DNA of 64,000 bases from Thermoplasmata archaeon (GCA_022749935.1 JAKIWQ010000004.1:2286-66285), one strand, 5' to 3'; shown: positions 23,830 through 60,080, counted from the stretch's first letter. A program made the numbers and translations. The notes: generated by a model not told the origin, from the letters alone.

Positions 23830-24302
23830 GGCCCCTCGGTTCGCAATTCGTCCACCGCTCGCACGATGGCCGCGTACCCGGTGCATCGGCACAGGTTTCC
23901 ACCGAGTCCATCGAGCAATTCCTCTCGAGCGGCCGCGGTGCCTCGTTCCTTCAAGAGTCCGGCGAGCGCCATCACGAACCCCGGGGTGCAGTACCCACAC
24001 TGGAGCGCACCGGCCCGGTCGAACGCGGCGCGCACCCGGGTCACCACGAGATCCTCGGGACCCGTCTCGATGGTCGTGAGCTTCGCTCCGTCGACCTCGT
24101 GGGTCAGGGTGAGGCACGACAGGGTCGTCCGATCGTCGACGAGGACCGTACACGCCCCACAGTCACCGGTCCGGCACCCTTCCTTCGTTCCCTTGAGGCC
24201 GAGCCGCCAACGCAAGGTGTCGAGGAGTCGCTCCGAGTCGGGGACATTGGCGAGGTGCTGGGGGTGCCCGTTCACCTGGAACCGGAGCGGAGGAGACGTC
24301 AT
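23826..24302 (-). CDS. [2Fe-2S] iron-sulfur small subunit of molybdenum hydroxylase (CoxS/XdhC-like)
   Basis: Two 2Fe-2S motifs: CRTGDCGACTVLV and CGYCTPGFVMA...CRCTGY. The ATG at 24302 overlaps the FAD-subunit stop (ATGA). Confidence 0.88.
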   Translation of the reverse strand: MTSPPLRFQVNGHPQHLANVPDSERLLDTLRWRLGLKGTKEGCRTGDCGACTVLVDDRTTLSCLTLTHEVDGAKLTTIETGPEDLVVTRVRAAFDRAGALQCGYCTPGFVMALAGLLKERGTAAAREELLDGLGGNLCRCTGYAAIVRAVDELRTEGP

Positions 24303-26223: not shown

Positions 26224-29200
26224 CTAGGGCTCGACGCTCATCGGCGAGGCGGAGGGGGGGAACTGGTCAAGGGTCCGCTGGGCGGCGGCACCGGGGAACA
26301 GCGTCGCGAGCGAGTCCGCGAGCACCTGGATCCGCTGGCGAACGTAGGGCGTGATCCCCTCGATCGAGCCGAGCCGCTGGGAGAGGGCGAGGTACTTTCG
26401 CACCGACCCTTCATACACAGTCGAGAGGAGTTCGCCATCACACCGTCCGCCGCCCGGCCGGAGCGCGACGCACCGGCTGGCGAGCGGCGGCCGGCGGTAC
26501 GAGGCGCCGCAGACCTTGCATCGAAATTTCTGCGTCGCGTAGCTCTTGAGATTTCCCATCAGGTCCGGCAGGAAGTGAGCGTTCAGGACGAGCGTGACCG
26601 CTTCCGCGACATCGACCGCCCGGATTTGGGCCGCGAGGAGGATCGAGCGCTCGACCATGTCGTTCATCGACCGGGCGTCCCGGTAGGCGGAGCGGACCGG
26701 GCCCCCCGCGATCCGGGTCGTGTCGTGCGTGAACCCGTACCCCGAGAGGGCGTGCTCGGTCCCGAGCCGGCCCGCGACCTGCTCGATCATCGCCTCGACC
26801 TCCTTGGCCGGTCGGCGGTCGGCCGCGGCCCGGTACAGGGCGAGCGGGTAGTGGTCCCCTACGTCGACGTGGTGGGCCTCCTTGTCGACCTCCGTCGCCT
26901 CGAGCCGGGTCGTGAGGACGAGCGGCTTGTCCATCAACGCGCCCCGGCTGTCCGGCAAGTACGACCGGGAAAAGTTGAGGAGGGCGTCCAGCAAGAGCGT
27001 GACCGAGTCCTCGTCCCCGTCACAGTTCCGCCGTTTCGCCGCGTGGAACACGGGGTGGGCGAAGCACGCCTCGGCGTTCGTGAACCCGATGATCCGTCCC
27101 GTGACCCCGCCCGAGGTATGCGGGGCGAGGGCGATCACGATCGCCCCGACGAGGTCCCCCGGACGGTTCGCCCGGTAGAACGGGTCGAGGTTGTAGAGCC
27201 GGAGGAGTTCGTCGTCGACGAACTGGGCGAGACGGGTCAGGTAGTCCCCGCACGTGCGGGCGACGACCAGGTCCTGCGGGAGGAGCTCGACCAACTGTTC
27301 CTCGTCGGTCAGCTCCTGGCCGAGCCAGTCGTGCGTGTACCCGAGCGCGCGCAGCGTCGGAACCGGAGTCCCGACCTCGCCCGGTCGGAAGTGGGTGAGT
27401 GGGAGGTCGGTGAGGTCGAACCGGGCCGTCCCGTCCTGGTAGACCGAGATCCCGTGGGACGCCCGGAGGATCCCCTTCTCGATGGGCTCGGGCACTTTCC
27501 CCGGCGAGGTGAGCCCCTTCACGCCCTTCACCACCGGCGTGTGCGCGATGTGGAGGCGGGCGACCGCATCGCTCCAGAGGCGGGCGATCGGGAGCGGCTC
27601 GCTGACGACCCGGCCGTCCGGCTCCGTGTGCGTCCCGCAGGTACACCGGTTCCAGACAGTGGTCCGCTGGCACGACGGACAGAGGCGGACCCCGAGGTCG
27701 ACCCGAACTCCGTCCCGCATCGTCTGACGGGCGGCCTCGGGGACCGACCGGGTCGAACCGCCGGCTGGCCCGACGGGGAACAGCGCGTGGACGTTGGGCT
27801 CCATCGTGCGCTGGTACGCTTTTTCGGGTCGTCCGACGCGTCCCCCGATCCGGGAGGGGGCCCGGCTCCCGACCGTGACGCCGGCGAGACGGCCTACGTA
27901 GACGAGCGGGTCCTCGTCGACCGGGTCGATGTCCCGCTGCCGGGACAGGAGGCCTTCCGACACCTCGAGACCGAGACCGCCCACGAGGGCGTCGCTCGGG
28001 TCCGGCTCCCCGCGCCATCGGTCGGGGCCGCAGGGACCCATCAGGAACCCGAGCCGGATCAGGACCTCTCTCCAGCCCGGATCGTGCGGAAGCTCGAGGG
28101 CTCCGTCGCTCCATCGGCCCGTCCTCTCGACGAACTCGGAGAGCGCCCGGATCTCGCCGGGGGAGAGGTCATGCCAGAAGAGGAGCCAACGGGGGTGCAG
28201 GGGAACTCGGAATGTTCGGGAGGTCCGGACCGCGTCCTCGTACGAGGTCGGCGCGATCGCGACCGGGTCGGCTCCGGCGGCCAGGAGTTCCTCGACGTGC
28301 CAATCGAGCGAGTACGCCCCCGGGGCGAGGGGCCGGTTGTTCTCGAGGAACTCCCCGTAGCTGACGAGGATCTCACCGAGGTCGATGATCCGGCGAACTC
28401 GGGGCAGGAGGTCCGTGGCCCGGGCGGCCTCATGCACCGCGGTCAGGGTCCCGTCGTCGAGTTCGACGATCGGTCCCTCGATCGTGTCGCAGACTCCCAT
28501 CGCCGTCGCCTTGCCGGGGTACTCGAGCTTGACCTGCGTCCCCACGGCGACGAAATGTTGGAGGATCACCATCGTGGCCGGGTTGAGCGCGCACGCGGCG
28601 AGACCGGTCGTGCGGGCGCGTCCGTAGACGAGCCGGAACCCGCCGGGATGGCTCGGATGGGCCAGGACCGGTCGGCCCCCCACCGAATCCTGAAGGTACT
28701 TCGGAGTCTGGGCGTCGTCGTCGTCTACGGCATGGTGGCCGAGTTGTTCGAGGAACTCCCAGCCGTCCAGCCCCAGTTTGTCGACGATCCGCCGGAGCTT
28801 CGCGGCCTTCTGACAGAGTCCCTCAGCGATGACCAGGCACGCACCCCCTCGGATCCCGTTGGTCGGCACTCGGGCCAGGTTGCGAAAGGCGCTGACCTCG
28901 GCGTCGCCCTCGGTGGACTCTCCGGAGATCGAAACGGGGACGTTCTCCACGACGAGGGCGATCTCCTCGGCCGTCGGCACGTACTGGAGGTGCTGGTGGT
29001 ACTTGTACAACGGGATCTCCTCCTTGTATCGCTCGACCTCCGTGCGGTCGGGGCGGAACCGGGCGAGCCCGAGGTCGCGGCGGACGATGTCGGCCAGGAG
29101 CACGCTCAGGGCCTGCGCCGTACCGCCCGCCGCCCGGATCGGTCCGGCGTAGTACAGCTCGATGTACTGCCCTCCCGGTCCGTCCCGAACGTGGACCTCA

Positions 29201-29556
29201 GCCAGGCCCTCGAGGGGGGCCACCAGAATCCCCTCGGTGAGAATCGCGAGGCCCACTCGGAGCGCTGCGTCGACCCGGTCGGCGACCGAGCCCCCACGGG
29301 ACGTGTCGTTCGCGAGTCGACGGGTGATCCGCACGGCGACCTCTTCTCGCGGGAGGGTGGCGCCTAGCGTGCGGATCTCCTCGGAGATACCTTCGATCCG
29401 GAGATGGGCGAGGAGTTTCTCCACCCGCATGGCCATGTCCTGGGCCCGCGGTATCTCGGGGTGGATCTCCGGGTCGAGCCCCTCGCTTCGGGCTCGCTCG
29501 GCGACCGTGTAGGCCCGGTCGACTTCGGACTCGATCGCCCGGAAGTAGGGCTCCAC
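26224..29556 (-). CDS. polC: DNA polymerase D (Pol II) large subunit DP2
   Basis: Zinc-finger motif CPSCQRTTVWNRCTCG...C and conserved DP2 blocks throughout ~1110 aa. GTG start at 29556 (VEPYFRAIE) with a TATA-like tttatcc ~25 nt upstream. No intein-sized insertion. Confidence 0.9.
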   Translation of the reverse strand: MEPYFRAIESEVDRAYTVAERARSEGLDPEIHPEIPRAQDMAMRVEKLLAHLRIEGISEEIRTLGATLPREEVAVRITRRLANDTSRGGSVADRVDAALRVGLAILTEGILVAPLEGLAEVHVRDGPGGQYIELYYAGPIRAAGGTAQALSVLLADIVRRDLGLARFRPDRTEVERYKEEIPLYKYHQHLQYVPTAEEIALVVENVPVSISGESTEGDAEVSAFRNLARVPTNGIRGGACLVIAEGLCQKAAKLRRIVDKLGLDGWEFLEQLGHHAVDDDDAQTPKYLQDSVGGRPVLAHPSHPGGFRLVYGRARTTGLAACALNPATMVILQHFVAVGTQVKLEYPGKATAMGVCDTIEGPIVELDDGTLTAVHEAARATDLLPRVRRIIDLGEILVSYGEFLENNRPLAPGAYSLDWHVEELLAAGADPVAIAPTSYEDAVRTSRTFRVPLHPRWLLFWHDLSPGEIRALSEFVERTGRWSDGALELPHDPGWREVLIRLGFLMGPCGPDRWRGEPDPSDALVGGLGLEVSEGLLSRQRDIDPVDEDPLVYVGRLAGVTVGSRAPSRIGGRVGRPEKAYQRTMEPNVHALFPVGPAGGSTRSVPEAARQTMRDGVRVDLGVRLCPSCQRTTVWNRCTCGTHTEPDGRVVSEPLPIARLWSDAVARLHIAHTPVVKGVKGLTSPGKVPEPIEKGILRASHGISVYQDGTARFDLTDLPLTHFRPGEVGTPVPTLRALGYTHDWLGQELTDEEQLVELLPQDLVVARTCGDYLTRLAQFVDDELLRLYNLDPFYRANRPGDLVGAIVIALAPHTSGGVTGRIIGFTNAEACFAHPVFHAAKRRNCDGDEDSVTLLLDALLNFSRSYLPDSRGALMDKPLVLTTRLEATEVDKEAHHVDVGDHYPLALYRAAADRRPAKEVEAMIEQVAGRLGTEHALSGYGFTHDTTRIAGGPVRSAYRDARSMNDMVERSILLAAQIRAVDVAEAVTLVLNAHFLPDLMGNLKSYATQKFRCKVCGASYRRPPLASRCVALRPGGGRCDGELLSTVYEGSVRKYLALSQRLGSIEGITPYVRQRIQVLADSLATLFPGAAAQRTLDQFPPSASPMSVEP

Positions 29557-29728
29557 GGGGCGCCCACACTCCGAGGGAGGATAAACCCGCCGCGAGAAAT
29601 CAGCCCCGGTGGTACGACGGTGACCCTGTTCGTCGGAAACGCGGGGCTCGACCCGGCCGACGGCCGAACATCGCCGTTCGCCTGGGAGGCCCTTTATCCG
29701 ACAGGAGTTCCCCCGTCGAGGTCGTCGG

Positions 29729-30283
29729 ATGGAACCGGCGGAATCGTACGGGCCGGCCACGTTTCGCCCCGCCGTGGTCTCGGACGCCGGCCGGCTCGCC
29801 GACATTCACATCCGGGTCCTGATGGTGACCTATCGGGGAATCGACCCGCAGGAGTGGCTCGATAGCCTACCCCAACAGCTGATCGAGCGGGAAACACGGT
29901 GGCGCGAACGCCTCTCCCAAGTTCCCGTGGACGTGGTCCACGTGGCGGAGGTGGCGCCCGCGGGCCTCGTCGGGTTCGCCGTCGGGGGTCCCGCTCGCCC
30001 TCCCAACTTGGGGTACGAAGGGGAGCTCATCTCCCTGTACCTCCTACCGGAGCACCAGCGACGCGGGATCGGACGGGAGCTCGTCCGACGTGTGGCCCGC
30101 TCCCTGATGGAACGAGGGTTGCGGGGGATGTTGGTGCGAGTCCTTACCGCGAATCCGGCCCGCCTCTTCTACGAGCGACTCGGGGGCCGCCCGGTCGGAG
30201 TGCAGACCGTCACCATCGGGGACCAGCCACTCGAGGAGACCGTGTACGCCTGGCGCGACCTCGACCTCTACTTCGCGCCGTAA
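29729..30283 (+). CDS. GNAT-family N-acetyltransferase
   Basis: Motif A, QRRGIGRELVRRV, is present. 184 aa. A TATA-like cctttatccg sits ~30 nt upstream. Confidence 0.72.
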   Translation: MEPAESYGPATFRPAVVSDAGRLADIHIRVLMVTYRGIDPQEWLDSLPQQLIERETRWRERLSQVPVDVVHVAEVAPAGLVGFAVGGPARPPNLGYEGELISLYLLPEHQRRGIGRELVRRVARSLMERGLRGMLVRVLTANPARLFYERLGGRPVGVQTVTIGDQPLEETVYAWRDLDLYFAP

Positions 30284-38170: not shown

Positions 38171-38662
38171 TTAGCGTGGACCGAGGTCGGCCCGTCCCGA
38201 CCCCGGACCCCCGGCGAGAAGTTCCTCGCCGCGCGCGACCGCCTCGACGGCGGAGACGAGGTCCCGGATCGCGAAGGGGCGGTTCAAGATCGCGCGCACG
38301 CCGAGCCGGCGGGCGCGCGCCAGCAGGTCCGGTGTCGTTTCCGGGACGATCAAGAGAGGGAGGAGACCCGCTTGCCGGGCCCGGGCGACGCCGAGCTCGT
38401 GCGGCCAAAGCTCCCCCTCCCCGTCGGCCACGAGGATGAGGACCCGGGGCGGGTCGGCCTCCTCGACGGATGCGAGCGACTCCGCGCTGCCCACCTCACC
38501 GGTCACCCGGTGGTGGTGCAGCCGGATCAACCCCCGCAGCAGGAGCCGGGTTTCCTCGGTTCCCCCTACAATGAGTGTGTGTACGATCGGTCGGTCGACT
38601 CCCGGCGCAGGACGGCCGGCAGGCACTTCGGCACGCGGCACATTTTCGTCGTTTCGGCGCAT
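38171..38662 (-). CDS. Receiver-like (pseudo-receiver) domain protein lacking the canonical acid pocket and Lys
   Basis: CheY-like alpha/beta pattern. It has LIVGG where DD is expected, LILVADGEG, LLIVPETT, and NRPF where KPF is expected. Confidence 0.45.
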   Translation of the reverse strand: MRRNDENVPRAEVPAGRPAPGVDRPIVHTLIVGGTEETRLLLRGLIRLHHHRVTGEVGSAESLASVEEADPPRVLILVADGEGELWPHELGVARARQAGLLPLLIVPETTPDLLARARRLGVRAILNRPFAIRDLVSAVEAVARGEELLAGGPGSGRADLGPR

Positions 38663-39664: not shown

Positions 39665-41194
39665 CTAGAACGGGACCTGAGCCCGGACTTCCCGCACCAG
39701 CGCTCCCGAGGCGATCGCCTCGGTCACGCGCGCGATGTCGCCCGCGGGGCTCCGGTCGTGAGACCAGGGAGCGACGCGGGACCGGAGCGCCCGGAAGGCC
39801 GCCTCGCTCCCGGCGCCCCCGGTCTTGGGGTGGCGCAGCTCGAGCGCCTGCCCGGCGACGATCCACTCCACGGCCACGACCCGCCGCGTGTTCTCCAGGA
39901 TGCGTCGTAGCTTGGCTCCGGCCCAGGGACCCATGCTGACGAAGTCCTCCTGGTCGGCCGAGGTCGGGAGGCTGGAGGCACTCGCGGGGTGGACGAGGGT
40001 CACGTTCTCGTTTACGAGCGCGGCGGCGAGATACTGGGGGACCATGAACCCCGAGCTTACTCCCGGGTCGGGCGCGAGGAAGGCGGGCAGTCCCCGGTTG
40101 AGGGCGGGGTGGAGGAGCCGGGAGGTCCGCCGCTCGCTGAACGCGGCGACGTACTGGGTCGTGAGGGCGAGGGTGTCGAGCGCCAGCGCGAGCGGTTGTC
40201 CGTGGAAGTTTCCTCCGCTGACGAAGTCGTCCTTCTCGAAGACGACGGGATTGTCGGTGACGGCGTTGAGCTCCCGCCCGACGACCTCTTCGGCAAACCG
40301 GAGCCCGAGCAAGACCGACCCGAGGACCTGGGGAAGGCAGCGCAGCGTGTAGGCATCCTGCCCTGCCCAGGCCGTGCGAGGGGCGGAGAGGGCGGAGCCG
40401 GCGAGGAGCGCGCGCATCGAAGCGGCGATGGTGCGATGTTCGGGAAAATTGCGGATCTCACCAAGACGGTCGTCCAGCGATTCGGGATTCCCTTCGAGCG
40501 CGTCAAACGAGAGCGCCGCGGCGATCAGGCCCGCGTCCAACACCGAGCGGAGGTCCTGGACGGCGAGCGCGAGGTACGACGCCATGAGGGCCGTCCCGTT
40601 GAGGAGCGCGACCCCCTCCTTCTCGACCAGTTCGAGCGCGGGGATCTCGTCCCGCTCGAGGACCCCGCGGGCCGGCAGCGGGTCCCCACCCTCGGGTGGA
40701 ACGAACGCACCCTCTCCCATGAGCGTCAGCGCCAGATGTGCGAGCGGAGCGAGGTCGCCCGAAGCACCGACCGAACCCTGCTCCGGGATCCAGGGCTGGA
40801 GTCCATGGTTGAGCAGGTCGAGGAGCCGCTCGACAACCTCCACCCGGACCCCGGAGTGACCCCTGGCCAGCGAATTCGCCCGAAGCAGGACCAATCCGCG
40901 CACCACGTCGCTCGGGAGGGCCGGACCGGTCCCGCTCGCGTGGCTCCGGACGAGGGAGATTTGGAGCTCTCTCGCCTTCGCTGGCGAGATCGTCTTGTGA
41001 GAGAGCCCCCCGAATCCGGTCGTCACCCCGTAGATGGCCCGTTCGGCCGCTACCACGCGCTCGACAGCCTGCCGGCTCGACATCATCGCCTTCCGCGCCT
41101 CGGGCGCGAGGGCGACCTTGTGTCCCTCGCGGGCGATCGCGAGGAACTGCTCGAGGGTCAGCGAGCGGCCGTCCATCGGGATCGTCTCGGTCAT
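39665..41194 (-). CDS. hutH: Histidine ammonia-lyase
   Basis: MIO-forming GSVGASGDLAPL signature. 509 aa. Confidence 0.9.
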   Translation of the reverse strand: MTETIPMDGRSLTLEQFLAIAREGHKVALAPEARKAMMSSRQAVERVVAAERAIYGVTTGFGGLSHKTISPAKARELQISLVRSHASGTGPALPSDVVRGLVLLRANSLARGHSGVRVEVVERLLDLLNHGLQPWIPEQGSVGASGDLAPLAHLALTLMGEGAFVPPEGGDPLPARGVLERDEIPALELVEKEGVALLNGTALMASYLALAVQDLRSVLDAGLIAAALSFDALEGNPESLDDRLGEIRNFPEHRTIAASMRALLAGSALSAPRTAWAGQDAYTLRCLPQVLGSVLLGLRFAEEVVGRELNAVTDNPVVFEKDDFVSGGNFHGQPLALALDTLALTTQYVAAFSERRTSRLLHPALNRGLPAFLAPDPGVSSGFMVPQYLAAALVNENVTLVHPASASSLPTSADQEDFVSMGPWAGAKLRRILENTRRVVAVEWIVAGQALELRHPKTGGAGSEAAFRALRSRVAPWSHDRSPAGDIARVTEAIASGALVREVRAQVPF

Positions 41195-41246: not shown

Positions 41247-41777
41247 TTACCCCGCGGGGACGACGAGCTCCCCACCGGGCTTCTGCAGGGAGGGCACCCG
41301 GCGGGTCTTCTGTCCTTTGGCTTGCCAGAAGATCTCCGCGAACTCCTGGACGAGCTTCTGGAGCTCCTGCGCGTCGGCCAGGTTCGTCCCCTGGCGCGCC
41401 TTGGACGCTTGCTTCATGATCTTCCAGGTGAGCTCGTGGATCTGGGGGAACTGCTTGGCGTGGTCGGGAGTGAAGAAATCGCCCCAGATGACACGGACCT
41501 CGGTCTTCAGTTTCTCCGCGTGCTGCTCCTTCACGGTGGTGTAGCGGGAGACCTTGGCGACGTACCCCGCACGGTCCTCCGGCTTGGCGTCCATCGGAGG
41601 GGACGCGAGCTCGGCGATCAACTGGTCCATCCGGACGATCGTCATCGCCGAGAGTTGCGCGTCGATCGGGTCATAAATACCACAGGGAATGTCGCAGTGC
41701 GCGTACACGGGCTCGGGCGGTCGAACGGCGTCCCAGAGACGGGTCACGCCCTCTCGGATAGGGGAAAATGCGGGCAT
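41247..41777 (-). CDS. sodN: Nickel-containing superoxide dismutase precursor (NiSOD)
   Basis: Ni-hook HCDIPCGIYDP follows a 26-aa leader. A four-helix body follows. A TATA-like ccttatgcc sits ~25 nt upstream of the ATG. Confidence 0.8.
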   Translation of the reverse strand: MPAFSPIREGVTRLWDAVRPPEPVYAHCDIPCGIYDPIDAQLSAMTIVRMDQLIAELASPPMDAKPEDRAGYVAKVSRYTTVKEQHAEKLKTEVRVIWGDFFTPDHAKQFPQIHELTWKIMKQASKARQGTNLADAQELQKLVQEFAEIFWQAKGQKTRRVPSLQKPGGELVVPAG

Positions 41778-41855
41778 GAGCGGCGCACTCTCGAGCGGGG
41801 CATAAGGTTGCCGGACGCCACGCGTCCCTCGGCGGCGGGTACCGGCTGGTGGTCG

Positions 41856-42242
41856 GTGCTCCGACGTCGGTTGAGGAGTCGCCGGTTCGTCGTCCGCGAT
41901 GATTCGATGGTGCCCACGCTACTCCCGGACGACCACCTCCTCGTCGACCCGGAGGCGTATCGTACGGCCGGACCCCAGCGGGGAGACCTCGTCGTCCTGC
42001 AGGACCCCGAAGTGGAGGCGCGCCGGTTGGTGAAGCGCGTCGACGGACTTCCCGGGGATTTCCGGGGGACCGCGGGCACGATTCCGACCGGGTCGGTGTA
42101 CGTACTCGGGATCGACCCGAGCCGGAGCCGGGACAGTCGGAGCTTTGGGCCGGTCCCGATAGGTCACATCGTCGGCCGGGCCTGGTTCCGGTACCGTCCG
42201 CCCGAACGGAGGGGTCCGCTACCTCCCGCCACCGTTAAGTGA
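41856..42242 (+). CDS. sodX: S26/S24-family signal-peptidase-like protease; putative NiSOD maturation peptidase (SodX-like)
   Basis: The pattern SMVPTLLPDDHLLVD...GDLVVL...VKRVDGLPGD is signal-peptidase-I-like. It is divergent from sodN. The start could be TTG 41808 or GTG 41856. Its stop overlaps the ATG of the next gene. Confidence 0.55.
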   Translation: MLRRRLRSRRFVVRDDSMVPTLLPDDHLLVDPEAYRTAGPQRGDLVVLQDPEVEARRLVKRVDGLPGDFRGTAGTIPTGSVYVLGIDPSRSRDSRSFGPVPIGHIVGRAWFRYRPPERRGPLPPATVK

Positions 42243-43345
42243 TGTGGCATTTGCCCACATCGATGCGTCCAGTCGTTCGTACCGCCGTCGGGGTCGTCGT
42301 CGTCGTGAGCGCGCTGGTCGGCGGGTTTCTTGGAGGTTGGTATCTTCACACCCCGGCCGCCTCCACGGCCGGCCCGACCTCCTCCACGTTGGGGATCATC
42401 GCGGCGGGAAGTCTCGCACCGATCCTCCCCTCGTTCGCGTCGGCCTTCGCCAACCAGACGTCCGGGGTCGACGCGTCCGCCGCGGCGCAGCTGTACGAGG
42501 GGTCGACGGCCGCGGCGACCGCGCTGAGTACGGAAACGCATTCCCCGTACGACCTCTTCATCTCGGCCGATTTCCGCGTGATCCCGCAGCACCTCGAGGC
42601 TCCGACCAGCACCGTGGCCACCTGGGAGGCCGTGTTCGCCTCCGACCCGGTCGTCCTGGCGTATGCCCCGGGCGTGTCCGCGCTGTCGGGGATCAACACG
42701 ACCAACTGGTTCCAGAAGGTCACCGCGTCCGGCGTGACCCTCGGGGTCGCCAACGCCAGCGCCGACCCGTTGGGAGCCAACGCCCTCTTCGTCCTCGAAC
42801 TCCAGGACGCCCTCGCCCACCAGAGCGGCGCCCTCTACGGCCACTTCTTCAACGGCGCGCTGGGGGCCCTCGCGACCCCCACGTCCTCGGCCAAATTCGT
42901 CGCCGAGAACGTCGCGCAATCGGCCCTGTCCACGGGAGAGGTGAGCGCCTACCTCATCTACCGGTCGTACGCCCAGGTCGACCACCTCACCTACGTCAGC
43001 CTGAGTTCGTCGGTGAATCTCGGAGCGACCGACCCGTCGAACGTCAGTCTCTACGGGACCGTCTCGACCACCATCCTGTCGGGCACGTCGACCAAGAGTG
43101 TGGCCGGCGCACCGGTACTCTTCGCGCTGACCGTCCCGACCAACGCGCCGAACGTCGCCCTCGGGGTCGCCTTCGCCGCCTACCTCCTGTCCAACGCCAC
43201 GTCGTCGATGTGGGCCGCGGACGGATTCCAGCCGATCTCACCGGCGTGGGTCGACGCACCCGCCCATGTGCCCGCCGCGCTCAGTGGGTTCGCCCCCGAC
43301 GGCCTTCCTCCACTTCCCGCCGACCTCGCGAGCCTCCTGGCCTGA
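42242..43345 (+). CDS. ABC transporter periplasmic-type substrate-binding protein, molybdate/tungstate (ModA/WtpA-like) family, membrane-anchored
   Basis: N-terminal anchor VVVVVSALVGG. The SBP_bac_11-like core is LFISADF...VLAYAPG. It is the first gene of an SBP-permease-ATPase-TOBE regulator set. Confidence 0.65.
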   Translation: MWHLPTSMRPVVRTAVGVVVVVSALVGGFLGGWYLHTPAASTAGPTSSTLGIIAAGSLAPILPSFASAFANQTSGVDASAAAQLYEGSTAAATALSTETHSPYDLFISADFRVIPQHLEAPTSTVATWEAVFASDPVVLAYAPGVSALSGINTTNWFQKVTASGVTLGVANASADPLGANALFVLELQDALAHQSGALYGHFFNGALGALATPTSSAKFVAENVAQSALSTGEVSAYLIYRSYAQVDHLTYVSLSSSVNLGATDPSNVSLYGTVSTTILSGTSTKSVAGAPVLFALTVPTNAPNVALGVAFAAYLLSNATSSMWAADGFQPISPAWVDAPAHVPAALSGFAPDGLPPLPADLASLLA

Positions 43346-43367
43346 GGCCGGACGGCCTCACCCCGTG

Positions 43368-44210
43368 ATGTTCGCTAGCCGCACCGCCACCATCGCCCGG
43401 GTGGTTGCGGGAATCCTTTCGGCCTCCTTGGTCGGCCTGTTCGTCCTCCCGCTCGTCGCCCTGGTGGCCTACACGGGGTGGGACGGGATCCTCTCCGCCG
43501 CGGGAAACGGCGGGTTCCGGACGGCGCTCGAGTTCACGTTGCTCGCGTCGGCCATCGCGGTCGGTCTAGGTCTCCTCACCGGGGTGCCCCTCGGGTACGT
43601 CCTCGCGCGATACCGGTTTCCCGGGCGCTCGATCGTGGAGTCGCTCGTCCTCGTACCGGTCGTGATCCCGCACCTCGTGGTAGGCATCGCCCTTCTCCTC
43701 CTCTTCGCCCCCGGAAATCCGGTCGGAGGCTGGGTCGCCTCGCTCGGCATACCGGTGTTTGACGGAACCTGGGGCGTGGTCCTGGTCATGATGTACGTCG
43801 GCTCGTCCTACGTGGTCCTGACCAGTCAGCTGGCGTTCCGCTCGGTGGACGACGACGTCCTCGAGTCCGCGCGCTCGCTCGGCGCGACTCCGTCCGAGGC
43901 GTTCCTCACCGTGACGCTCCCCTCGGCCGCCCGGGGCATCTTGACCGGGGCTCTGCTGATGTGGGCGCGGGGCGTCAGCGAGGTCGGCGGGTTCATCATC
44001 CTCGCCTACGCGATCTACCCGAGTCCCCCGTGGAACGGGCCCGTCACCAACCCCGCGTCCGTGTGGATCCTGAACTACTACTCGATCGACCCGAGTCTCG
44101 CGGTGGGGGCCGCGGCGCTCCTGGTCTTGGTCGCACTTGCCCTCTTCCTCGCGATCCGACTGGTCGACCGGACGGGGATCCTCACCGCCCTCCGGGGGTG
44201 GTGGTCGTGA
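43368..44210 (+). CDS. ABC transporter permease (ModB/WtpB-like)
   Basis: Six TM segments. The EAA-like loop is ESARSLGATPSEAFLTVTLP. Confidence 0.8.
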   Translation: MFASRTATIARVVAGILSASLVGLFVLPLVALVAYTGWDGILSAAGNGGFRTALEFTLLASAIAVGLGLLTGVPLGYVLARYRFPGRSIVESLVLVPVVIPHLVVGIALLLLFAPGNPVGGWVASLGIPVFDGTWGVVLVMMYVGSSYVVLTSQLAFRSVDDDVLESARSLGATPSEAFLTVTLPSAARGILTGALLMWARGVSEVGGFIILAYAIYPSPPWNGPVTNPASVWILNYYSIDPSLAVGAAALLVLVALALFLAIRLVDRTGILTALRGWWS

Positions 44211-45238
44211 GCGGTCTCGTCGTGGAGGGACTCGAGGTCGCACGGGGCGAGTTCCACCTGGGACCCATCCGTCTCGACGTCCCCCCGGCGTCGGCCACCG
44301 CGCTCCTCGGACGGTCGGGGGCGGGCAAGACCACGCTCCTGCGGACGCTCGCGGGGTTCCTGCCGGCCCAACGCGGGGAGGTTCGCCTCGGGGACCGATC
44401 GATCGGTCGCCTTCCCCCCGAGCGGCGGGGGTTCGGGTTCGTCCCTCCCAACCTCGGCCTCTTCCCACATCGCCGGGTCCGCGAGAACGTCGCCTATCCG
44501 TTGCGACTCCGCGGCGCTCCGGACGCGGCCGCGCAGACCCGGGTCTGGATCGACCGGTTCCATCTCGGGGGCCTCGCCGATCGGTATCCGGCCGAGCTCA
44601 GTTCGGGGCAGCAACAGCGGGTCGCGATGGCCCGGGCTCTGGCGGCCGGTCCCAGCGCCCTCCTCTGGGACGAACCCCTGGCCGCGCTGGACGTCGAGAG
44701 CCGCGACGTCCTCCTCCGACTGGTTCGAGACCTCCTCGTCGCGGAAGGGTTGTCGCTCCTCCTCGTCACCCACGACGCCGCCACCGCGCTCGCGCTCGCC
44801 GACCGGATCGTCGTCCTGGTCGAGGGCCGGATCCGGTTCGACGGCCCTCCCGAGCAGCTCGCGCGAGCCCCTCTCGATCGGTTCATCGCCCGGTTCCTCG
44901 GGTTCGAGAACCTCCTCTCGCTCGCCGAGATCGAGACCGGGTCCGCATCGGGGCTCGCCCCGGATCTCCGTCGGGCGGCCGGCCCAGGTGGCGTGGTGAT
45001 CCCGCCGACGGCGCTGACCTGGAGCCGTTCGGGAACGAACGAGGGGCCGGCGCAGGTGAATGCGCTTCGCTGGACCCCCGGCGGCTGGGTGGTGGTCGTC
45101 CAGGAGGGTCCGTGGACGTTCCGTGTCCCCGCCGGACCCCACCCACCCACCGTCCGGGTCGGGGACCCGGTGACGCTCTCGCTCGACCCGACGCTCTTGA
45201 AGCCGCTCTCCGACCTCACCGACGAGGAGGCCGCATGA
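44207..45238 (+). CDS. ABC transporter ATP-binding protein (ModC/WtpC-like)
   Basis: Walker A GRSGAGKTT, signature LSSGQQQRV and Walker B LLWDEP. The GTG start overlaps the permease stop (GTGA). Confidence 0.85.
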   Translation: MSGLVVEGLEVARGEFHLGPIRLDVPPASATALLGRSGAGKTTLLRTLAGFLPAQRGEVRLGDRSIGRLPPERRGFGFVPPNLGLFPHRRVRENVAYPLRLRGAPDAAAQTRVWIDRFHLGGLADRYPAELSSGQQQRVAMARALAAGPSALLWDEPLAALDVESRDVLLRLVRDLLVAEGLSLLLVTHDAATALALADRIVVLVEGRIRFDGPPEQLARAPLDRFIARFLGFENLLSLAEIETGSASGLAPDLRRAAGPGGVVIPPTALTWSRSGTNEGPAQVNALRWTPGGWVVVVQEGPWTFRVPAGPHPPTVRVGDPVTLSLDPTLLKPLSDLTDEEAA

Positions 45239-45891
45239 GCGAGGAGCGATGGCTGACGCCGACGGACGTGCGCCTCCTCGGGTCGCTCGCCGAGACCCCG
45301 AACCTGGTCCGGGCGGCCCGCTCCATCGGGATCGGGCGGGACCGGGCGGTCTACCGGCTGCAGCGACTCGCGCGACTCTACGGGCACGCGGTCTCCGTCG
45401 CCCACCGGGGTGGCACGACCCCCGGCGCGACGCGGCTCACGGCGCTCGGTCGGCGTCTCTTACAGCGAGCGGGCGGGACCGACCCGGAAGTCCAACAATG
45501 GTCGGGGGTCTACCGGACCGGTCCGCCCCCCCGCGTGGTCCTCGGGCCGGGAAAGGAGCTGGTCGTCTCGTTCCCGGCGGGGGAAGGACGGGCCGTGCGC
45601 GTCGCCGTCGAGCCGGAAGCGTTCGTCATCGCCCGCCAGCGCGTCGACCTGAGCGCCCGGAACGTCCTCCGCGTCCGTGTGGTCGCGGCCCACCGACGGC
45701 CGCACGGGGAAGCGGAGGTGTTGGCCGACTGGTCCGGAACGCCGGTCCGAGTGGCCCTCACCTGGTCGTCGGTCGAGCGGCTCCGGCTGACCCCGGGGGC
45801 GCGTGTCTACCTGTACGTGAAAGCCGTGGCGCTTCGCCGCATCGCTGCGGCCGTTCCCGCGCGGACTACTCGCGGATCCCCTCGGTCGTGA
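45235..45891 (+). CDS. ModE-like regulator: N-terminal HTH plus C-terminal TOBE (molybdate/tungstate-binding) domain
   Basis: [31 protein letters not shown]. The TOBE-like segment is [11 protein letters not shown]...[15 protein letters not shown]. The ATG overlaps the ATPase stop (ATGA). Confidence 0.55.
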
Positions 45892-46861
45892 GCGAGAAGA
45901 CCGCCTCGCCCTCGGGGAGGTTCGGGGAATCGATGAGGCGCGCGATCCGGCGCGGTGGCTTGGACTTCCGCAGGTAGACCCGATACGTCGCGGCGTGGGC
46001 CACGATGTTCCCGCCGATGGGTCGGGTCGGGTCGCCGAAGAGGATGTCCGGCCGGGCCGAGACCTGGTTCGTGACGACGATGGAGGCGTTGTACGTGTCG
46101 GAGAACCGGAGCAGCTCGTGGAGGTGCTTGTTGAGAAGCTGTTGCCGCGGGGCGAGCTCGGCGCGCCCGAGGTACTCCGCCCGGAAGTGGGCGGTCAGGG
46201 AGTCGACCACGAGCAGGCGGATCGGCTTCTCCCGGGCGAGTTCCTGCGCCTTCTGGACGAGGAGCATCTGGTGGTTCGAGTTGAAGGCGCGCGCGACGTG
46301 GATGTGGGAGAGCGCCTCCGTCGGGTCGATCCCGGCGCCCTTGGCCATATCCACGATCCGCTCGGGGCGGAACGTGCTCTCCGTGTCGATGTAGACGACC
46401 TCGCCCTCGAGCCCGCCCTGCGCCGGCGGCAGCTGGACGTCGACCGCGATCTGGTGGGCGATCTGGGTCTTTCCCGTCCCGAACTCGCCGGAGAACTCGG
46501 TGATCGCCTGGGTCTCGACGCCGCCCCCGAGCAGTTCGTCCAATGCTTTGGCGTTGGTCGTGATCCGCCCGAGCTTCTTGCGACGCTCGAGCAACGCGGT
46601 CCCGCTCTCGAACCCGCCGACGTCGGCCTTCCGTCGCGCTTCCCCGATGAGCTTCTGGGCGCTCGCCGTCCCGATCTCGGCCGCCTCGGCGACGTCCCCC
46701 GGCGAGGCGACCGCGAGTTCCATCAGGTCGGTGTACCCGGCCTCCCGCAGCTTGTCGGCGGTGGCGGTGCCGATTCCGGGCAGGTCCTCCAGCGCGATCT
46801 CGTGTTTCGGCTCCGGAGGACTCTCCGTCTGTCCGGGCCGGGCGGTGGGCTTCGGCGGCAC
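45866..46861 (-). CDS. radA: DNA repair and recombination protein RadA
   Basis: N-terminal Hh[21 protein letters not shown]. Walker [10 protein letters not shown]. The RecA/Rad51 core is present. Confidence 0.92.
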
Positions 46862-46927
46862 GAGGCCACCGACCCGACTACGAGGGATAAGGGTGGGGGA
46901 GGGGTCGCGGAACGGTGGAGGGTGCGC

Positions 46928-47887: not shown

Positions 47888-47954
47888 CGGTGGTCGAGGA
47901 GGGCCGAGCGGCTTAAGGTTGCGGGGCCGCGCCGCCCCTTCGAGGCGCCGGACG

Positions 47955-53106: not shown

Positions 53107-53162
53107 GAACCGGGCCGGGGCGTAAAGGTTTCCTCCGCCCGCGCTCGGGGGCGGTTTGGACG

Positions 53163-56000: not shown

Positions 56001-59000
56001 CTACGGTCCCGGTTCCCCGTAGGTCGTCTCGGGCGTCGTGTCCTCCGGTTCCCTCACCGGTGGGTGGGCCGGAGGCGTCGCGGTCGGAGGCGACTCGGCT
56101 TCCCCCTCCCCGTACGTCGTCTCTGGTGTGGTGTCCTCGGGCTCCCTCGCCGGCGGGTGGGTTGAGCTGGTCCCGGTCGGAGACGACTCGGCGGGGGGTC
56201 CGCGGACGCGCCGCTTCCGGGCGAACAGTAGGCCGAGCACCAGGGCCACGAGAGCCAGCCCCACGGCCGCGTAGACCCAGAGCGGGAGGGCGGAGCCCGG
56301 ACCTCCGGAGGAAGCAGAGGAAGCGACCACGGTGAGGGTCACTTGGTCCCCGACCGTTCGGTTCAACTGATCGGTCGCTCGCACGCTGACCGAGAACGTG
56401 CCCAGCACCGCGGGGAGGCAGCTGACCGTAGAGGTATTCGCACTCTGACATCCCGTCGGAAGGCCCCCGTACGCGTACGTCACCGCCCCGACCGCGCCCA
56501 CCAACGTGACGGTGAGGCGGGAGGTCGCGCCGAGAGAGACCAACGCCGGCGAAGCGACGAACGACCCGACGGCCAACGTCGGGGGGGTCGAGACCGAGAG
56601 GGTGAGCATCGCCTTCGAACGGCCGCCCTGGAGGTCGGTGACGTTGACCGTGACGGAACTGTTTCCGACCGCCGTCGGGAAGCAGTGAAGGACGGCGACA
56701 TTTCCACTGGTACACCCGCTCGGGAGTCCTGAGTAGGAGTAGCTCAGCGACGCCCCGGACGCGACGACCGTGAGGACGGTCGTCTCGCCGAGGTAGATCG
56801 AGCTCGCCGACGCGGTGAAGGACGTGATGGTCGGGAGGGGGATCCGATACACCGTGAGGGTCGCGTTCGCCTCCGCGGACTTTCCGTAGATGTTCGTGGC
56901 AGTGACGGTCACGGTGTAGTTGCCGACAACCGACGGGGTGCAGGCGAGGGCCGAGATGTTGGCCGATGCGCACCCCGTGGGGAGTCCGGTGTACGCATAG
57001 TTCATCCAACCGTACGCCCCGGTGGCCACGGTCTGGAAGACCGTTCCGCTCCCGTTCGGGATGCTCGGCGGGACGGCTTGGAACGAGGTGATCACGGGAT
57101 TCGGGTCGGGCAACACCTGGAGCGTCAGGTTGGCGGTCGCGGTCTTTCCGTAGGCGTTGGTGACCGTGACCTCGACCGGATAGCTTCCGAGGACCGTCGG
57201 GGTGCACCCGAACGAGGAGAGGTTCTGGCTCCCACAACCGGGGGGCAGTCCGGAGTAGGTGTAGGCCAGCCAGCCGTACGCCCCCGTCGCGTTGACGCGG
57301 AGGACGCTCGCGTTATGGAGGAAGATCACCGAGGGGGTCGCCGCGAACGTCTGGATCACCGGAGACGGGGCCACGCTCACGGAGAGGCTCGTGTTCGCGA
57401 ACGCCGTCACGAGGTTGGCGTTGGTCACCGTGACCTCGATCGTGTAGGAGCCCGACCCCGTGGGGGTGCACGCCAGGGACGAACTGTTGACGGTCCCGCA
57501 CCCGGCCGGCAACCCCGTGTAGGCGTACGCCAGCCAGCCATACCCACCCGTCGCGTTCACCATCAGGGTCGTCGCATTCCCGAGGAAGAGAGAGGGCGGG
57601 TTCGCGGAGAACGAGTGGATCTGGGGAGCCGGCAGGGTGTGCACCACCAGGTCCGTGAAGGCGGTCGTGGACCGTCCGGCTCCGTCGGTCACGAGGACCT
57701 CCACGCGATACTCGCCCCGCGAGGTCGGGGTGCACAGGAAGGAGGGCCCGTTCGTACTCGAACATCCGGGGGGAAGTCCGGAGTACGCGTACGATAGGGA
57801 GCCACTCCAACCTTTCGCCGTGACATTGAACGTGGTGCTTCCGCCGATCTGGACGCTCGCAGGGGCGGCCGTGAACGAAGCGACGTATGGGGCCCCGGAC
57901 GAGTTCGTGGGGAGGATGGAGATCCCGCCCCCGAGGACGTTGGCCACATAGAGGTCCCCGTTCCCCGGATCGTAGGCGAGGGACGAGGGACCAGCCCCCA
58001 CGCTCACATTCCCCAACGGCGAGAACGTCGTCGCGTTGTAGAACGTGAGGTTGTCGGTCGCGTAGTCCGCGGTCACGACCTCTTCCGTCCCGCTGAGGTA
58101 GGTCACGTCCGTGGGATCGGCCGTGCCGAGCGAGTAGGACGTGAGGGCGCGGCCGGTGCTCGCGTTGTACGCACCGAAGTAGGAGGGACAGAAGAGGCAC
58201 CCCTCCGCGACGACCATCGCGTTGGCGGCCGGGTCAAAGGTGATCGCCTCGGCCCGTCCTCCCGCGGGAAGCGGAACGTAACCGGTCACGTTGTCGGTGA
58301 AGGGGTCGATGATCGAGATCGTCGTGGTGTACCCCCCTGCGGTATTGTTCTGGATCCACAGTTCGCCCGTGACCGGGTCGTATCCGACCGCGTTGGGCGC
58401 GCCGCCGAAGGGGATGGTCGCCATGGTCAGGAGCGAGGTCGCGTTCACGACCGTCACGTAGCCGTTCGGCTGACAGAAATTGTCGACGTAGACGAACTGG
58501 TTCTCTGGGTCGTACGTCGCCCCGGAGGGGCTGCAGGATCCCGTGGCGAGGTTGGTGATGAGGTGGCCGGAGGTGGAGTTGACGACCCGAACCCCTGCCG
58601 TGGCCGCGACGAAGAGCTCGTGGAGGCCCGCAGCGTAGACGAGGGGGGAGGCGGACGGAAAGCTCGAGGCGGTAGGGTTCTCGTAGAACCCCCCGGTCCC
58701 GGACGGGCCGCTCAGGTTGAGGACCGTCCCGTAGGTCTCGGCGGTGGTCAGGAAGCCGGACCCGCGGAGCGGGTCCGCCACGAGGGTGGAGAGGACCGCT
58801 CCCGTCTCGATGTAGGTGATGCTCCCGAGCCCCGCGCCCGAGAGCACGCTCACGTTGTATCCCGCGACATCGAGGGCCCGAGCCGTCGGATCGTAGACGA
58901 GCTGGTTCGCGCCGTTTCCCGCGTAGACCGAGGGGCCAACCAATCGGGTGAGGAGGTTGACCGCCGTCAGGTTCGGCGAGGGGTACTCCGTCAGGTAGAG

Positions 59001-60080
59001 GGTGTGGAGGGAGGCATCGATCGCGAGCGCGGTGGGAAGGCCCGAAAATCCGATGGGCGCCAACAGCGTGTCCGTCGTGGCGTTGGCCTCGGTCAAGTTT
59101 CCGAGGGAGGCGCCGCCGGCCCCGTACGTGAAACTCGCGATGTAGAACGTCTGGCCCCCCGGCGCGACGACAAGGCCGACGCCGGTGTTGGCGTAGGTGA
59201 CCGAACTCAACCAGGCAAAGGTCGTGGCGTTGAAGATCGAGACGTTGCTCACCGAACTGTCCATGACCAGGAGCTCGTTCGTCAATGCATCGAATGCGGC
59301 GGCGAAGAGATCGGTCCCGAAGGTGACGTTAGTCTGGACCGTAACGGCCGTCGCGTTGATGACCGAAAAGGCTCCGTCGCCGTCGGCCAGGAAGACGTTG
59401 CCGGTGATCGTGTCGAGGGCCAGCTGCTCGGTCGAGCCGAAGGCGTTCCCCGCCGTGAGATTCGCCACGACTTGGTCGGTCGTGGTGTTGATGACCGAAA
59501 CCTCCCCCAAACCCGAATCGCCCACGTAGAGCTGGTGGGTCAGCGGGTCGAGCAGCATCGTGGAAGGGGTGGCGCCGGCGGGGAGGGAGATGATCGCGAC
59601 GACCCGGTCGAGCGTCAGGTTGATGACGTCGACCCCGTTGTGCGTCCCGCCCCCGCCCGTGGCCGCGACGTACAGCAACTCGCGTCCCGGGTCCACGGCA
59701 TCGCTCAGGTCGTTCGGTCGGTTGAGCGGTTGAAAGTTTCCGCCGACTAGGGTCTGGTTGAAGACCACGTAGGTCGAGTTCACGGCAGGCACGCTGGGAA
59801 ACGGTGGGGGCACCGCCGGCAGGCCCCGCGACGTTCCGATGCTGGAGAGCTGATCTACGGGGGTGAATGGTCGTCCGGAGTGGTTCCCAGCGAGCGCATT
59901 CGGCACCATCATCCCCGAAATGACAAACCCTGTGACCAGTATCCAGGCAAGGATGGTCGGGAGACGGCTCCGATTCGCGCGAGAAGACCCGGTACCACCG
60001 GGGGGCACTCGAACTGGCGTGGCCACCGGAAGTTCTGAACGCTGGAGTGAGGCGGGTCCGTCCGAGAATTGAGTCGACAC
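56001..60080 (-). CDS. Giant cell-surface glycoprotein: signal peptide, YVTN-type beta-propeller region, seven tandem ~90-aa Ig/PKD-like Cys-containing repeats, C-terminal TM anchor and repetitive acidic cytoplasmic tail
   Basis: The signal anchor ends in ALAG. YVTN-like repeats include LYVANVLGGGISIL. The repeat unit Y-x-YSGLPxGC...C.PT..G.Y...VTVT occurs 7 times. TM segment LWVYAAVGLALVALVLGLLFARKRR. The tail carries 2x PPxREPEDTTPETTYGE. There are dozens of NxS/T sequons. Confidence 0.8.
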   Translation of the reverse strand: MSTQFSDGPASLQRSELPVATPVRVPPGGTGSSRANRSRLPTILAWILVTGFVISGMMVPNALAGNHSGRPFTPVDQLSSIGTSRGLPAVPPPFPSVPAVNSTYVVFNQTLVGGNFQPLNRPNDLSDAVDPGRELLYVAATGGGGTHNGVDVINLTLDRVVAIISLPAGATPSTMLLDPLTHQLYVGDSGLGEVSVINTTTDQVVANLTAGNAFGSTEQLALDTITGNVFLADGDGAFSVINATAVTVQTNVTFGTDLFAAAFDALTNELLVMDSSVSNVSIFNATTFAWLSSVTYANTGVGLVVAPGGQTFYIASFTYGAGGASLGNLTEANATTDTLLAPIGFSGLPTALAIDASLHTLYLTEYPSPNLTAVNLLTRLVGPSVYAGNGANQLVYDPTARALDVAGYNVSVLSGAGLGSITYIETGAVLSTLVADPLRGSGFLTTAETYGTVLNLSGPSGTGGFYENPTASSFPSASPLVYAAGLHELFVAATAGVRVVNSTSGHLITNLATGSCSPSGATYDPENQFVYVDNFCQPNGYVTVVNATSLLTMATIPFGGAPNAVGYDPVTGELWIQNNTAGGYTTTISIIDPFTDNVTGYVPLPAGGRAEAITFDPAANAMVVAEGCLFCPSYFGAYNASTGRALTSYSLGTADPTDVTYLSGTEEVVTADYATDNLTFYNATTFSPLGNVSVGAGPSSLAYDPGNGDLYVANVLGGGISILPTNSSGAPYVASFTAAPASVQIGGSTTFNVTAKGWSGSLSYAYSGLPPGCSSTNGPSFLCTPTSRGEYRVEVLVTDGAGRSTTAFTDLVVHTLPAPQIHSFSANPPSLFLGNATTLMVNATGGYGWLAYAYTGLPAGCGTVNSSSLACTPTGSGSYTIEVTVTNANLVTAFANTSLSVSVAPSPVIQTFAATPSVIFLHNASVLRVNATGAYGWLAYTYSGLPPGCGSQNLSSFGCTPTVLGSYPVEVTVTNAYGKTATANLTLQVLPDPNPVITSFQAVPPSIPNGSGTVFQTVATGAYGWMNYAYTGLPTGCASANISALACTPSVVGNYTVTVTATNIYGKSAEANATLTVYRIPLPTITSFTASASSIYLGETTVLTVVASGASLSYSYSGLPSGCTSGNVAVLHCFPTAVGNSSVTVNVTDLQGGRSKAMLTLSVSTPPTLAVGSFVASPALVSLGATSRLTVTLVGAVGAVTYAYGGLPTGCQSANTSTVSCLPAVLGTFSVSVRATDQLNRTVGDQVTLTVVASSASSGGPGSALPLWVYAAVGLALVALVLGLLFARKRRVRGPPAESSPTGTSSTHPPAREPEDTTPETTYGEGEAESPPTATPPAHPPVREPEDTTPETTYGEPGP
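56036..56212. repeat. Direct tandem repeat, 2 x ~84 bp (~85% identical), encoding the duplicated Pro/Glu/Thr-rich C-terminal tail of the surface protein
   Basis: The two units are 56036-56118 and 56129-56212, aligned by eye. Confidence 0.55.
56230..58100. repeat. Tandem ~270-bp coding repeats (7 units) within the surface-protein gene
   Basis: The motif ccgtacgcccc(c/g)gt(c/g)gc / ccatacccacccgtcgc recurs at ~270-bp spacing and matches the protein-level repeats. Boundaries are approximate. Confidence 0.45.

Follow-up and report, generated by a model that had tools for sequence, protein, structure and literature searches.

Nickel superoxide dismutase genes and a putative molybdate/tungstate uptake cassette lie back to back, probably as separate units, in a Thermoplasmata archaeon

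Introduction

The nickel superoxide dismutase (NiSOD) of Streptomyces is made with a leader of 14 amino acids, and archaeal uptake of molybdate or tungstate (Mo/W) is represented by WtpABC/ModA-type ABC transporters such as WtpA of P. furiosus, ModA of A. fulgidus (PDB 2onk and 2ons) and MA_0280 of M. acetivorans (PDB 3k6u). Here we analyze a locus in which relatives of both systems stand side by side, at positions 41247 to 45891 of a 64,000-nucleotide (nt) stretch of DNA from a Thermoplasmata archaeon (GCA_022749935.1, JAKIWQ010000004.1:2286-66285), the whole of which we refer to as the window. An original prediction, made from the sequence alone, had described a NiSOD gene (sodN), a divergent gene for its maturation peptidase (sodX), and a translational chain running from sodX through a Mo/W-type ABC transporter to a TOBE-domain regulator. 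We think it likely that the locus instead consists of two ordinary units placed back to back: a sodN/sodX pair and a self-contained Mo/W uptake cassette autoregulated by a ModE-like protein.

In M. acetivorans, ModE consists of a helix-turn-helix (HTH) and one Mop domain, is encoded downstream of a wtpABC-like transporter, and binds the palindrome RTTATGT-N8-RCATAAY at distances of 29 and 194 bp from the starts of two Mo ABC-transporter operons (PMC12327845). For the archaeal lineage concerned, Ni-SOD is listed among the stress-resistance genes of the order Lutacidiplasmatales (Sheridan et al. 2022; PMC9287336), and the same article credits these organisms with genes for sulfite oxidase and with a distinct ABC system of the peptide/nickel type.

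Results

To place the locus among its relatives, we scanned one genome per species and obtained 29 sodN loci, 21 of which are close Thermoplasmata relatives (L001-L020 and L025, including UBA184 as L009; two are bin-labelled as bacterium only), with single loci from Nanoarchaeota and Micrarchaeota metagenome-assembled genomes. Comparison of the window proteins with related loci by tblastn recovered the order HAL-sodN<>sodX-wtpABC-modE><radA, in which HAL denotes a histidine ammonia-lyase gene, in 19 species genomes (some cut by a contig end), and the same block order in 54 metagenome contigs among the matches listed. Altogether, the Mo/W cassette stands directly behind sodX in 73 of 77 loci. 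In L019 and L020, whose SodN proteins are 62-64% identical to that of the window, sodX abuts radA and the transporter is missing, and in more distant archaeal and bacterial loci sodN and sodX alone travel together. This pairing indicates that sodX is tied to sodN and that the transporter is an extra module of one clade.

The appearance of chaining arises at the sodX stop codon, TGA 42240-42242, which overlaps two potential start codons, GTG 42239 and ATG 42242. Aligned across the 19 genome loci, the DNA of the sodX 3' end is not conserved, whereas the block that follows is nearly invariant and has a fixed order of a TATA-like box, a palindrome, one base and an invariant ATG, located at 42263 in the window. 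The box, TTAAGT at 42235-42240 on the plus strand, overlaps the sodX stop and starts 28 nt before that ATG; a box occupies this position in 19/19 genome loci as TTAAGY, TTATCC or ATAAGC. The palindrome, GATGTGG-N7-CCACATC, spans the 21 bp from 42241 to 42261 and contains the GTG and ATG of the apparent overlap. The complete element is present in all 77 cassette loci (19 genome and 58 metagenome). The TGATG on which the original prediction relied is thus really in the sequence, but it is accounted for by the ATG and GTG of the left palindrome arm, and the overlapping codon is probably not the true start of the downstream gene, whose translation more plausibly begins at the invariant ATG 42263. 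Although the frame is open as far back as 42239, translation from ATG 42263 opens with MRPVVRTAVGVVVVV, a normal-looking signal anchor, and in L010 the left arm is GATATGG, leaving no in-frame start upstream of the invariant ATG.

The box also sits at a spacing that recurs elsewhere in the window. TTA[AT] or TTTA boxes occur 28-29 nt before the starts of sodN, radA, purC, the PolD gene, purP (start 21610) and an open reading frame (ORF) starting at 53097, with a modest positional peak at 28-29 nt; their approximate positions are 41801-41807 (sodN), 42235-42240 (binding-protein gene), 46886-46892 (radA), 47912-47918 (purC), 29581-29587 (PolD DP2), 21635-21641 (purP) and 53122-53128 (the ORF at 53097). 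A box at this spacing is the arrangement expected of archaeal promoters driving leaderless or near-leaderless mRNAs, and the recurrence suggests that leaderless-type promoters are common in this genome and that the box at 42235-42240 is a putative promoter of the binding-protein gene. Window boxes often lie within (A)ACCTTAWNCC, and if box spacing is used as a guide to start codons, PolD would begin at GTG 29556 and not at the ATG 29805 that heads the longest ORF.

We also scanned JGI metagenomes for GATGTGG-N7-CCACATCGATG and recovered at least 120 loci. Among the matches listed, 58 are cassettes, and in every one of them a TTA[AT] box immediately precedes the palindrome. Two of the 58 end at a contig edge and 54 have sodX as their immediate upstream neighbor, which leaves 54 of 56 evaluable loci with sodX in place. 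The other 62 matches lack a box and, in all but a few cases, have only short ORFs downstream, and we set them aside as chance. The departures from the common arrangement are informative. In L096 and L101, a nucleotidyltransferase-like ORF takes the place of sodX, and in L114 (882-1520) a gene for a GNAT-like acetyltransferase is inserted between sodX and the element; in all three, box and palindrome stay with the binding-protein gene, which indicates that the regulatory element belongs to the transporter unit and not to sodX. The upstream region of L101 (1-2120) holds an ORF for a 445-amino acid IS-type (insertion sequence) transposase together with the nucleotidyltransferase-like ORF, the latter shared by L096 (1-700).

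These comparisons bear directly on whether sodX, the transporter genes and modE could form one polycistronic mRNA, translationally coupled through TGATG, so that NiSOD maturation and oxyanion import are co-regulated. The genes do lie tightly packed on one strand, with a gap between sodX and the binding-protein gene of -4 to +41 nt in the 19 genome loci; sodX is nearly always the upstream neighbor in the evaluable metagenome cassettes; and no obvious terminator follows sodX. However, the start codons of the overlap fall inside a conserved palindrome and are absent from L010, while the invariant ATG 21 nt further on opens a normal signal anchor and has a TATA-like box at this genome's usual distance. 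In one of the two cassette types described below (type B), the gap is 30-41 nt and there is no overlap at all: the sodX frame of type A runs into the box, producing an apparent overlap, and type B keeps a spacer. Box and palindrome remain with the binding-protein gene where sodX is not adjacent, and L019 and L020 retain sodN and sodX with no transporter. We therefore consider a single coupled transcript unlikely. An internal promoter, which the original prediction had itself set against its proposal of one translationally chained transcript, is suggested by the conservation of this element and by its persistence where sodX is absent or separated, and that proposal is not upheld.

The palindrome is a candidate operator for the cassette's own ModE-like regulator. 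GATGTGG-N7-CCACATC has a single exact match within the window, the next best carrying two mismatches and lying inside the Mo-hydroxylase coding sequence, where we treat it as chance. Its arms are complementary in 97% of positions across the 77 loci, with two compensatory double changes, one in L014/L016 and one in L002. Such covariation would also be expected of an RNA hairpin that is carried by a read-through or leader transcript and serves in processing, stability or start-codon masking, and a hairpin of -12.8 kcal/mol is predicted for this region. The arms, however, are near-invariant in sequence although the two cassette types share only about 44% protein identity, which is more readily explained by base-specific protein contacts than by a constraint on structure alone. 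RNA folding gives a z-score of only -1.55, and an Rfam search of the whole window matched no RNA family. Moreover, the box spacing suggests a transcription start close to the ATG, in which case the transcript would lack the hairpin. The near-invariance of the arms and the unexceptional RNA stability favor a DNA operator, and we regard the hairpin reading as improbable. A two-mismatch copy of the palindrome, GATGAGG-N7-ACACATC preceded by TATAGTTATCC, occurs in L018 (13056-13076) and L017 (3408-3428), about 80 nt upstream of a response-regulator-receiver-like ORF homologous to window 38171-38662 (itself with no Pfam match); this copy could be chance or a second regulated promoter.

The regulator gene (45235-45891, plus strand) shares its last 26 nt with the convergent radA. 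Its product, of 218 amino acids, combines a putative N-terminal HTH of ModE/LysR type with a single C-terminal TOBE domain (PF03459, 37.9 bits with a cutoff of 22.3). Matches of the N-terminal HTH are weak, whether to profiles (TIGR00637, 27.4 bits with a cutoff of 98.5; HTH_1, 13.9 bits) or to PDB structures (2ijl, E = 0.001; the N-terminal domain of 1b9m, E = 0.018).

Upstream of the regulator gene lie the three transporter genes. The first (42263-43345, plus strand) encodes a solute-binding protein of 360 amino acids and of the WtpA/archaeal-ModA class (SBP_bac_11, 83 bits). It reaches 120.3 bits with the WtpA model NF003196 (cutoff 355) and 114 bits with TIGR03730 (cutoff 242.75), close to the 116 and 102 bits scored by a type B binding protein (L002), and is a distant WtpA relative, not a certified WtpA. 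The second (43368-44210, plus strand, starting at ATG 43368 or GTG 43365) encodes a WtpB/ModB-like permease (BPD_transp_1, 60 bits; NF040839 WtpB, 177 bits with a cutoff of 340), and the third (44207-45238, plus strand) a WtpC/ModC-like ATPase (ABC_tran, 100 bits; NF040840 WtpC, 192 bits with a cutoff of 440). The original prediction had all of these genes joined by 4-nt overlaps, which holds for permease and ATPase (GTGA at 44207) and for ATPase and regulator (ATGA at 45235) but not for binding protein and permease, since 19-22 nt separate the binding-protein stop at 43345 from the permease start.

Several lines of evidence point to molybdate or tungstate as the likely substrate, namely the archaeal ModA/WtpA relatives and pocket columns of the binding protein, the TOBE/Mop domain of the regulator, and the molybdoenzymes encoded in the genome. 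Compared with the PDB, the binding protein has archaeal ModA/WtpA proteins as its only solved relatives (3k6u, E = 1e-25; 2onk, 3cfz and 3cg1, E = 1e-17 to 1e-21; also 3cg3). Across 19 sequences of both cassette types, the pocket columns AGS/AGT, GS, AD[YF], the Asp of DPxG, a Glu, and the Tyr of IY[RK]S are conserved, the Glu sitting 18 residues before that Tyr, and the two acidic residues are those that give octahedral coordination in the archaeal ModA/WtpA subclass. The corresponding ligands of A. fulgidus ModA, reportedly described by Hollenstein et al. (2009), we take to be Asp153, Glu218 and Tyr236, and our assignment of columns to ligands leans partly on that numbering. The pocket comparison with archaeal ModA/WtpA that had been proposed as a check on the binding protein thus finds Asp, Glu, Tyr and the Ser motifs all conserved. 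A Mo-hydroxylase of the xanthine-dehydrogenase/CoxL family is indeed encoded nearby, as had been noted, on the minus strand at 21625-25168, 17 kb from the importer; its large subunit (21625-24153) matches MoCoBD_1, MoCoBD_2 and Ald_Xan_dh_C and its FAD subunit (24299-25168) FAD_binding_5 and CO_deh_flav_C. With the pocket motifs kept and this enzyme in the window, the first of the two alternatives originally offered, a Mo/W oxyanion importer serving molybdoenzymes, is the one that gains support.

In some marine cyanobacteria, sodN and sodX are reportedly linked to a putative Ni permease gene, sodT (Dupont et al. 2008). Import of nickel for NiSOD, or of a different oxyanion (sulfate, vanadate or phosphate, for example), would account for the transporter's place beside sodX but nevertheless seems very improbable to us: all three transporter proteins do fall well below the curated WtpA, WtpB and WtpC cutoffs, but the best structural relatives are all archaeal ModA/WtpA, the Asp, Glu, Tyr and helix-N-terminus Ser motifs are kept in both cassette types, the regulator has a TOBE/Mop oxyanion-binding domain, the genome encodes molybdoenzymes, and Lutacidiplasmatales are reported to have a separate peptide/nickel ABC system (PMC9287336).

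In the binding protein (42263-43345), charged residues appear strikingly scarce and Ala, Ser and Thr abundant. Such a composition would suit an extracellular protein if the host is an acidophile, as Lutacidiplasmatales are described to be.

Cassettes at this site come in two types. Type A (the window, L001, L005, L010-L014, L016 and L018) has binding proteins 58-78% identical to that of the window, and type B (L002-L004, L006-L009, L015 and L025) binding proteins 39-46% identical to it, while box, palindrome and pocket motifs are common to both. The types do not follow their flanks. L002 is close to the window on either side (RadA 94%, SodN 86% and HAL 84% identity) yet carries type B (binding protein 44%, regulator 42%), whereas L011 has more distant flanks (70%, 70% and 88% for RadA, SodN and HAL) yet carries type A (binding protein 69%). 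Given this discordance with the phylogeny of the flanking HAL, sodN and radA genes, the simplest reading is that recombination has replaced the whole cassette while its site between sodX and radA stayed fixed. The trees were built by neighbor joining with no bootstrap, and the argument for replacement rests on the size of the identity contrast.

On the other side of sodX, sodN (41247-41777, minus strand) encodes a precursor of 176 amino acids that exceeds the cutoffs of both Pfam Sod_Ni (PF09055, 148.6 bits with a cutoff of 25) and TIGR02753 (145.8 bits with a cutoff of 90). In an alignment with the crystal chains of Streptomyces NiSOD (PDB 1t6u and 1q0d), its H27 falls on residue 1 (His1), which defines a leader of residues 1-26 and a mature hook reading HCDIPCGIYDP, just as originally described. 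The hook H27-C28-D-I-P-C32-G-I-Y35 matches crystal residues 1-9, including His1, Cys2, Cys6 and Tyr9, so that the incomplete His1-Cys2-Cys6 hook against which the original prediction had cautioned is not what alignment and profile search reveal. The leader end, ..PVYA|HCD, is conserved across 21 Thermoplasmata loci and the hook is invariant in 21 relatives. By profile and complete hook, SodN is a nickel SOD, with Ni binding and dismutation as predicted activities. A TATA-like box (41801-41807, minus strand, CCTTATG on that strand) starts 28 nt before the sodN ATG at 41777; its motif, GGCAACCTTATCC, is kept in 21/21 Thermoplasmata loci and abuts the sodX start codon on its plus-strand side, and it is a putative sodN promoter.

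The divergent neighbor is likewise the S26 signal-peptidase-like gene that had been recognized at the outset. sodX (41808-42242, plus strand) encodes a serine peptidase of 144 amino acids (Peptidase_S26, 80.7 bits). A start codon (TTG, ATG or GTG) occupies the same position in all loci compared, with in-frame stops just upstream in four of them, and this conservation fixes the sodX start at TTG 41808, 30 nt from the sodN ATG, a start that the original prediction had left unstated. A TATA-like box sought 28 nt before that start was not found in the window, and relatives show only a weak (G/C)ATAC there. The S26 boxes, with the Ser of SMxPT, the Lys of KR, and SRDSRxFG, are conserved in 27 loci, archaeal and bacterial, in all of which sodX adjoins sodN. 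Read from the sequence, the SodX N-terminus is basic, not hydrophobic, and the protein has no membrane anchor. The profile search thus bears out the S26 assignment but not membership in the SodX family proper: SodX scores 46.7 bits with TIGR02754, below the cutoff of 63.25, and does better as a generic signal peptidase I (TIGR02227, 78.6 bits with a cutoff of 47). Because the TIGR02754 cutoff is missed, we call the peptidase SodX-type by context, not as a certified family member, and presume that it is the NiSOD leader peptidase. The SodN site, ..V-Y-A|H, would fit the -3/-1 small-residue rule for cleavage.

The view that an archaeal NiSOD is unusual does not survive comparison. Searching 5.8 billion proteins returned 4247 SodN matches; identity is 71% or higher throughout the best 120 clusters, and many of the best-matching clusters are named 'superoxide dismutase, Ni [Thermoplasmata archaeon]'. 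NiSOD is common in this order, which the original prediction had anticipated would lower the novelty, and the trait had already been reported for the order (PMC9287336). The related proposal of a candidate horizontal acquisition fares no better, given a gene neighborhood that is syntenic in 21 species-level Thermoplasmata genomes and a composition within the window's range. G+C content is about 70% throughout the window, with no dip at the sodN-modE block, and G+C at third codon positions (GC3) is 0.86 for sodN and 0.80 for sodX, close to the 0.83-0.94 of the other window genes. With gene length taken into account, sodN and sodX use codons in a way that is unremarkable for the window. There is no sign of recent transfer of the block in its composition, and sodN was presumably acquired from bacteria before the radiation of this order. 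Raw codon-usage distance had made the block look atypical, an idea that we dropped since control for length leaves the ATPase gene as the sole outlier. The synonymous codon usage of that gene (44207-45238) lies beyond that of same-length fragments of other window genes (0/1000 as distant). Among the next-nearest NiSOD relatives, a SodN cluster at 51% identity is labelled Chloroflexota, and the sodX sequences of L021 ('bacterium') and L022 ('Thermoplasmata archaeon') are all but identical, making the taxon labels of these relatives unreliable.

The host itself is a soil archaeon of the Thermoplasmata lineage that includes UBA184 (Lutacidiplasmatales/TMEG), and archaeal markers in the window include the PolD large subunit DP2 (26224-29805), RadA (45866-46861) and PurP (20453-21610). 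Flanking the locus are the HAL gene (39665-41194, minus strand), identified by reading its translation, which borders sodN and is syntenic in relatives at 66-84% identity, and radA (minus strand), the conserved neighbor at the far end of the cassette and convergent with the regulator gene. Elsewhere, a 1359-amino acid ORF with PKD and Y_Y_Y domains (56001-60080, minus strand) probably encodes a large surface protein. A perfect 14-nt AT-rich inverted repeat (9104-9132; CTTAATTATTCTGG / CCAGAATAATTAAG, arms separated by 1 nt) immediately precedes the gene for a MarR-family regulator (8607-9098, minus strand) beside an MFS transporter gene (7009-8748) and is probably an autoregulatory operator of the MarR gene.

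Discussion

Taking the locus as two separate units, we can propose how each would work. In the first, sodN would be driven from its conserved box, CCTTATCC, 28 nt upstream of its ATG, and made as a precursor with a 26-amino acid leader; the soluble Ser/Lys S26 peptidase SodX would cut this precursor after ..V-Y-A, exposing His1 and allowing the His1-Cys2-Cys6 hook to bind Ni. In the second, the genes for binding protein, permease, ATPase and ModE-like regulator would be transcribed from their own promoter, TTAAGT, as a leaderless or near-leaderless mRNA. With the palindrome between box and start codon, the cassette's regulator most likely binds there as a dimer and represses cassette transcription when the oxyanion is plentiful, and imported Mo/W would feed molybdoenzymes such as the hydroxylase at 21.6-25.2 kb.

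Several points weigh against this reading. All three transporter proteins are far below the NCBIfam WtpA, WtpB and WtpC cutoffs, and the mapping of ligand residues in the binding pocket depends in part on the numbering that we take for A. fulgidus ModA. The palindrome differs in both sequence and spacing from the verified ModE motif RTTATGT-N8-RCATAAY, the regulator HTH matches ModE models weakly (27 bits with a cutoff of 98.5), and a second copy of the palindrome was sought but not seen close to the window's other Mo genes. The cassette may also receive some read-through from sodX, as the gap between them is at most 41 nt in nearly all loci.

Two more speculative ideas, to which we give little credence, are that the near-universal placement of the cassette behind sodX is functional, with such read-through gated by the ModE-type regulator at the palindrome, or that types A and B are exchangeable alleles differing in Mo versus W selectivity. 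If read-through were gated in this way, NiSOD maturation would be tied to Mo/W status in aerobic archaea whose molybdoenzymes (xanthine-dehydrogenase family, sulfite oxidase) themselves generate superoxide.

Our results are mainly a correction: in an archaeal genome of 70% G+C, a start/stop overlap had been read as coupling, and comparison assigns its codons to a promoter-like and operator-like element. They leave existing knowledge of NiSOD and of Mo/W transport unchanged, and we claim no new functional link between the two units. Several by-products may nonetheless prove useful, including the motif GATGTGG-N7-CCACATC as a testable candidate operator of ModE-like regulators in Lutacidiplasmatales; a putative promoter rule for this genome, in which a TTA[AT] box lies 28-29 nt before the start codon; corrected starts for sodX (TTG 41808) and, probably, the binding-protein gene (ATG 42263); and evidence for the Mo/W cassette as a module that can be replaced while its place in the chromosome stays the same.

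Set beside the described systems, the window sodN resembles that of Streptomyces at all key hook positions (HCDIPCGIY in the window, HCDLPCGVY in Streptomyces), in its N-terminal pro-peptide to be removed to expose His1, and in the adjacent gene for an S26 Ser/Lys peptidase. It differs in its archaeal host, its 26-amino acid leader, a 13-amino acid insertion at about residues 63-75 and a 22-amino acid C-terminal tail; in addition, sodN and sodX diverge from start codons separated by 30 nt, and the window peptidase falls below the TIGR02754 cutoff. The Ni-SOD reported for Lutacidiplasmatales is the same gene in the same lineage, and UBA184 (L009) has the gene order of the window; the accessible part of that report treats Ni-SOD as a stress-resistance trait and does not describe sodX, the neighboring transporter or the promoter elements (PMC9287336).

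The regulator recalls ModE of M. acetivorans in combining a putative HTH with a single Mop/TOBE domain, in being encoded downstream of a WtpABC-like transporter, and in the palindrome that stands upstream of Mo transporter genes, although the putative window operator, GATGTGG-N7-CCACATC, and the M. acetivorans operator are unlike in sequence and spacing. Finally, the transporter shares its fold family and A-B-C gene order with the archaeal WtpABC/ModA systems. Relative to these, the window proteins are very divergent (120, 177 and 192 bits with cutoffs of 355, 340 and 440), and the window's clade carries two cassette types, about 44% identical, at the same chromosomal site in different species.

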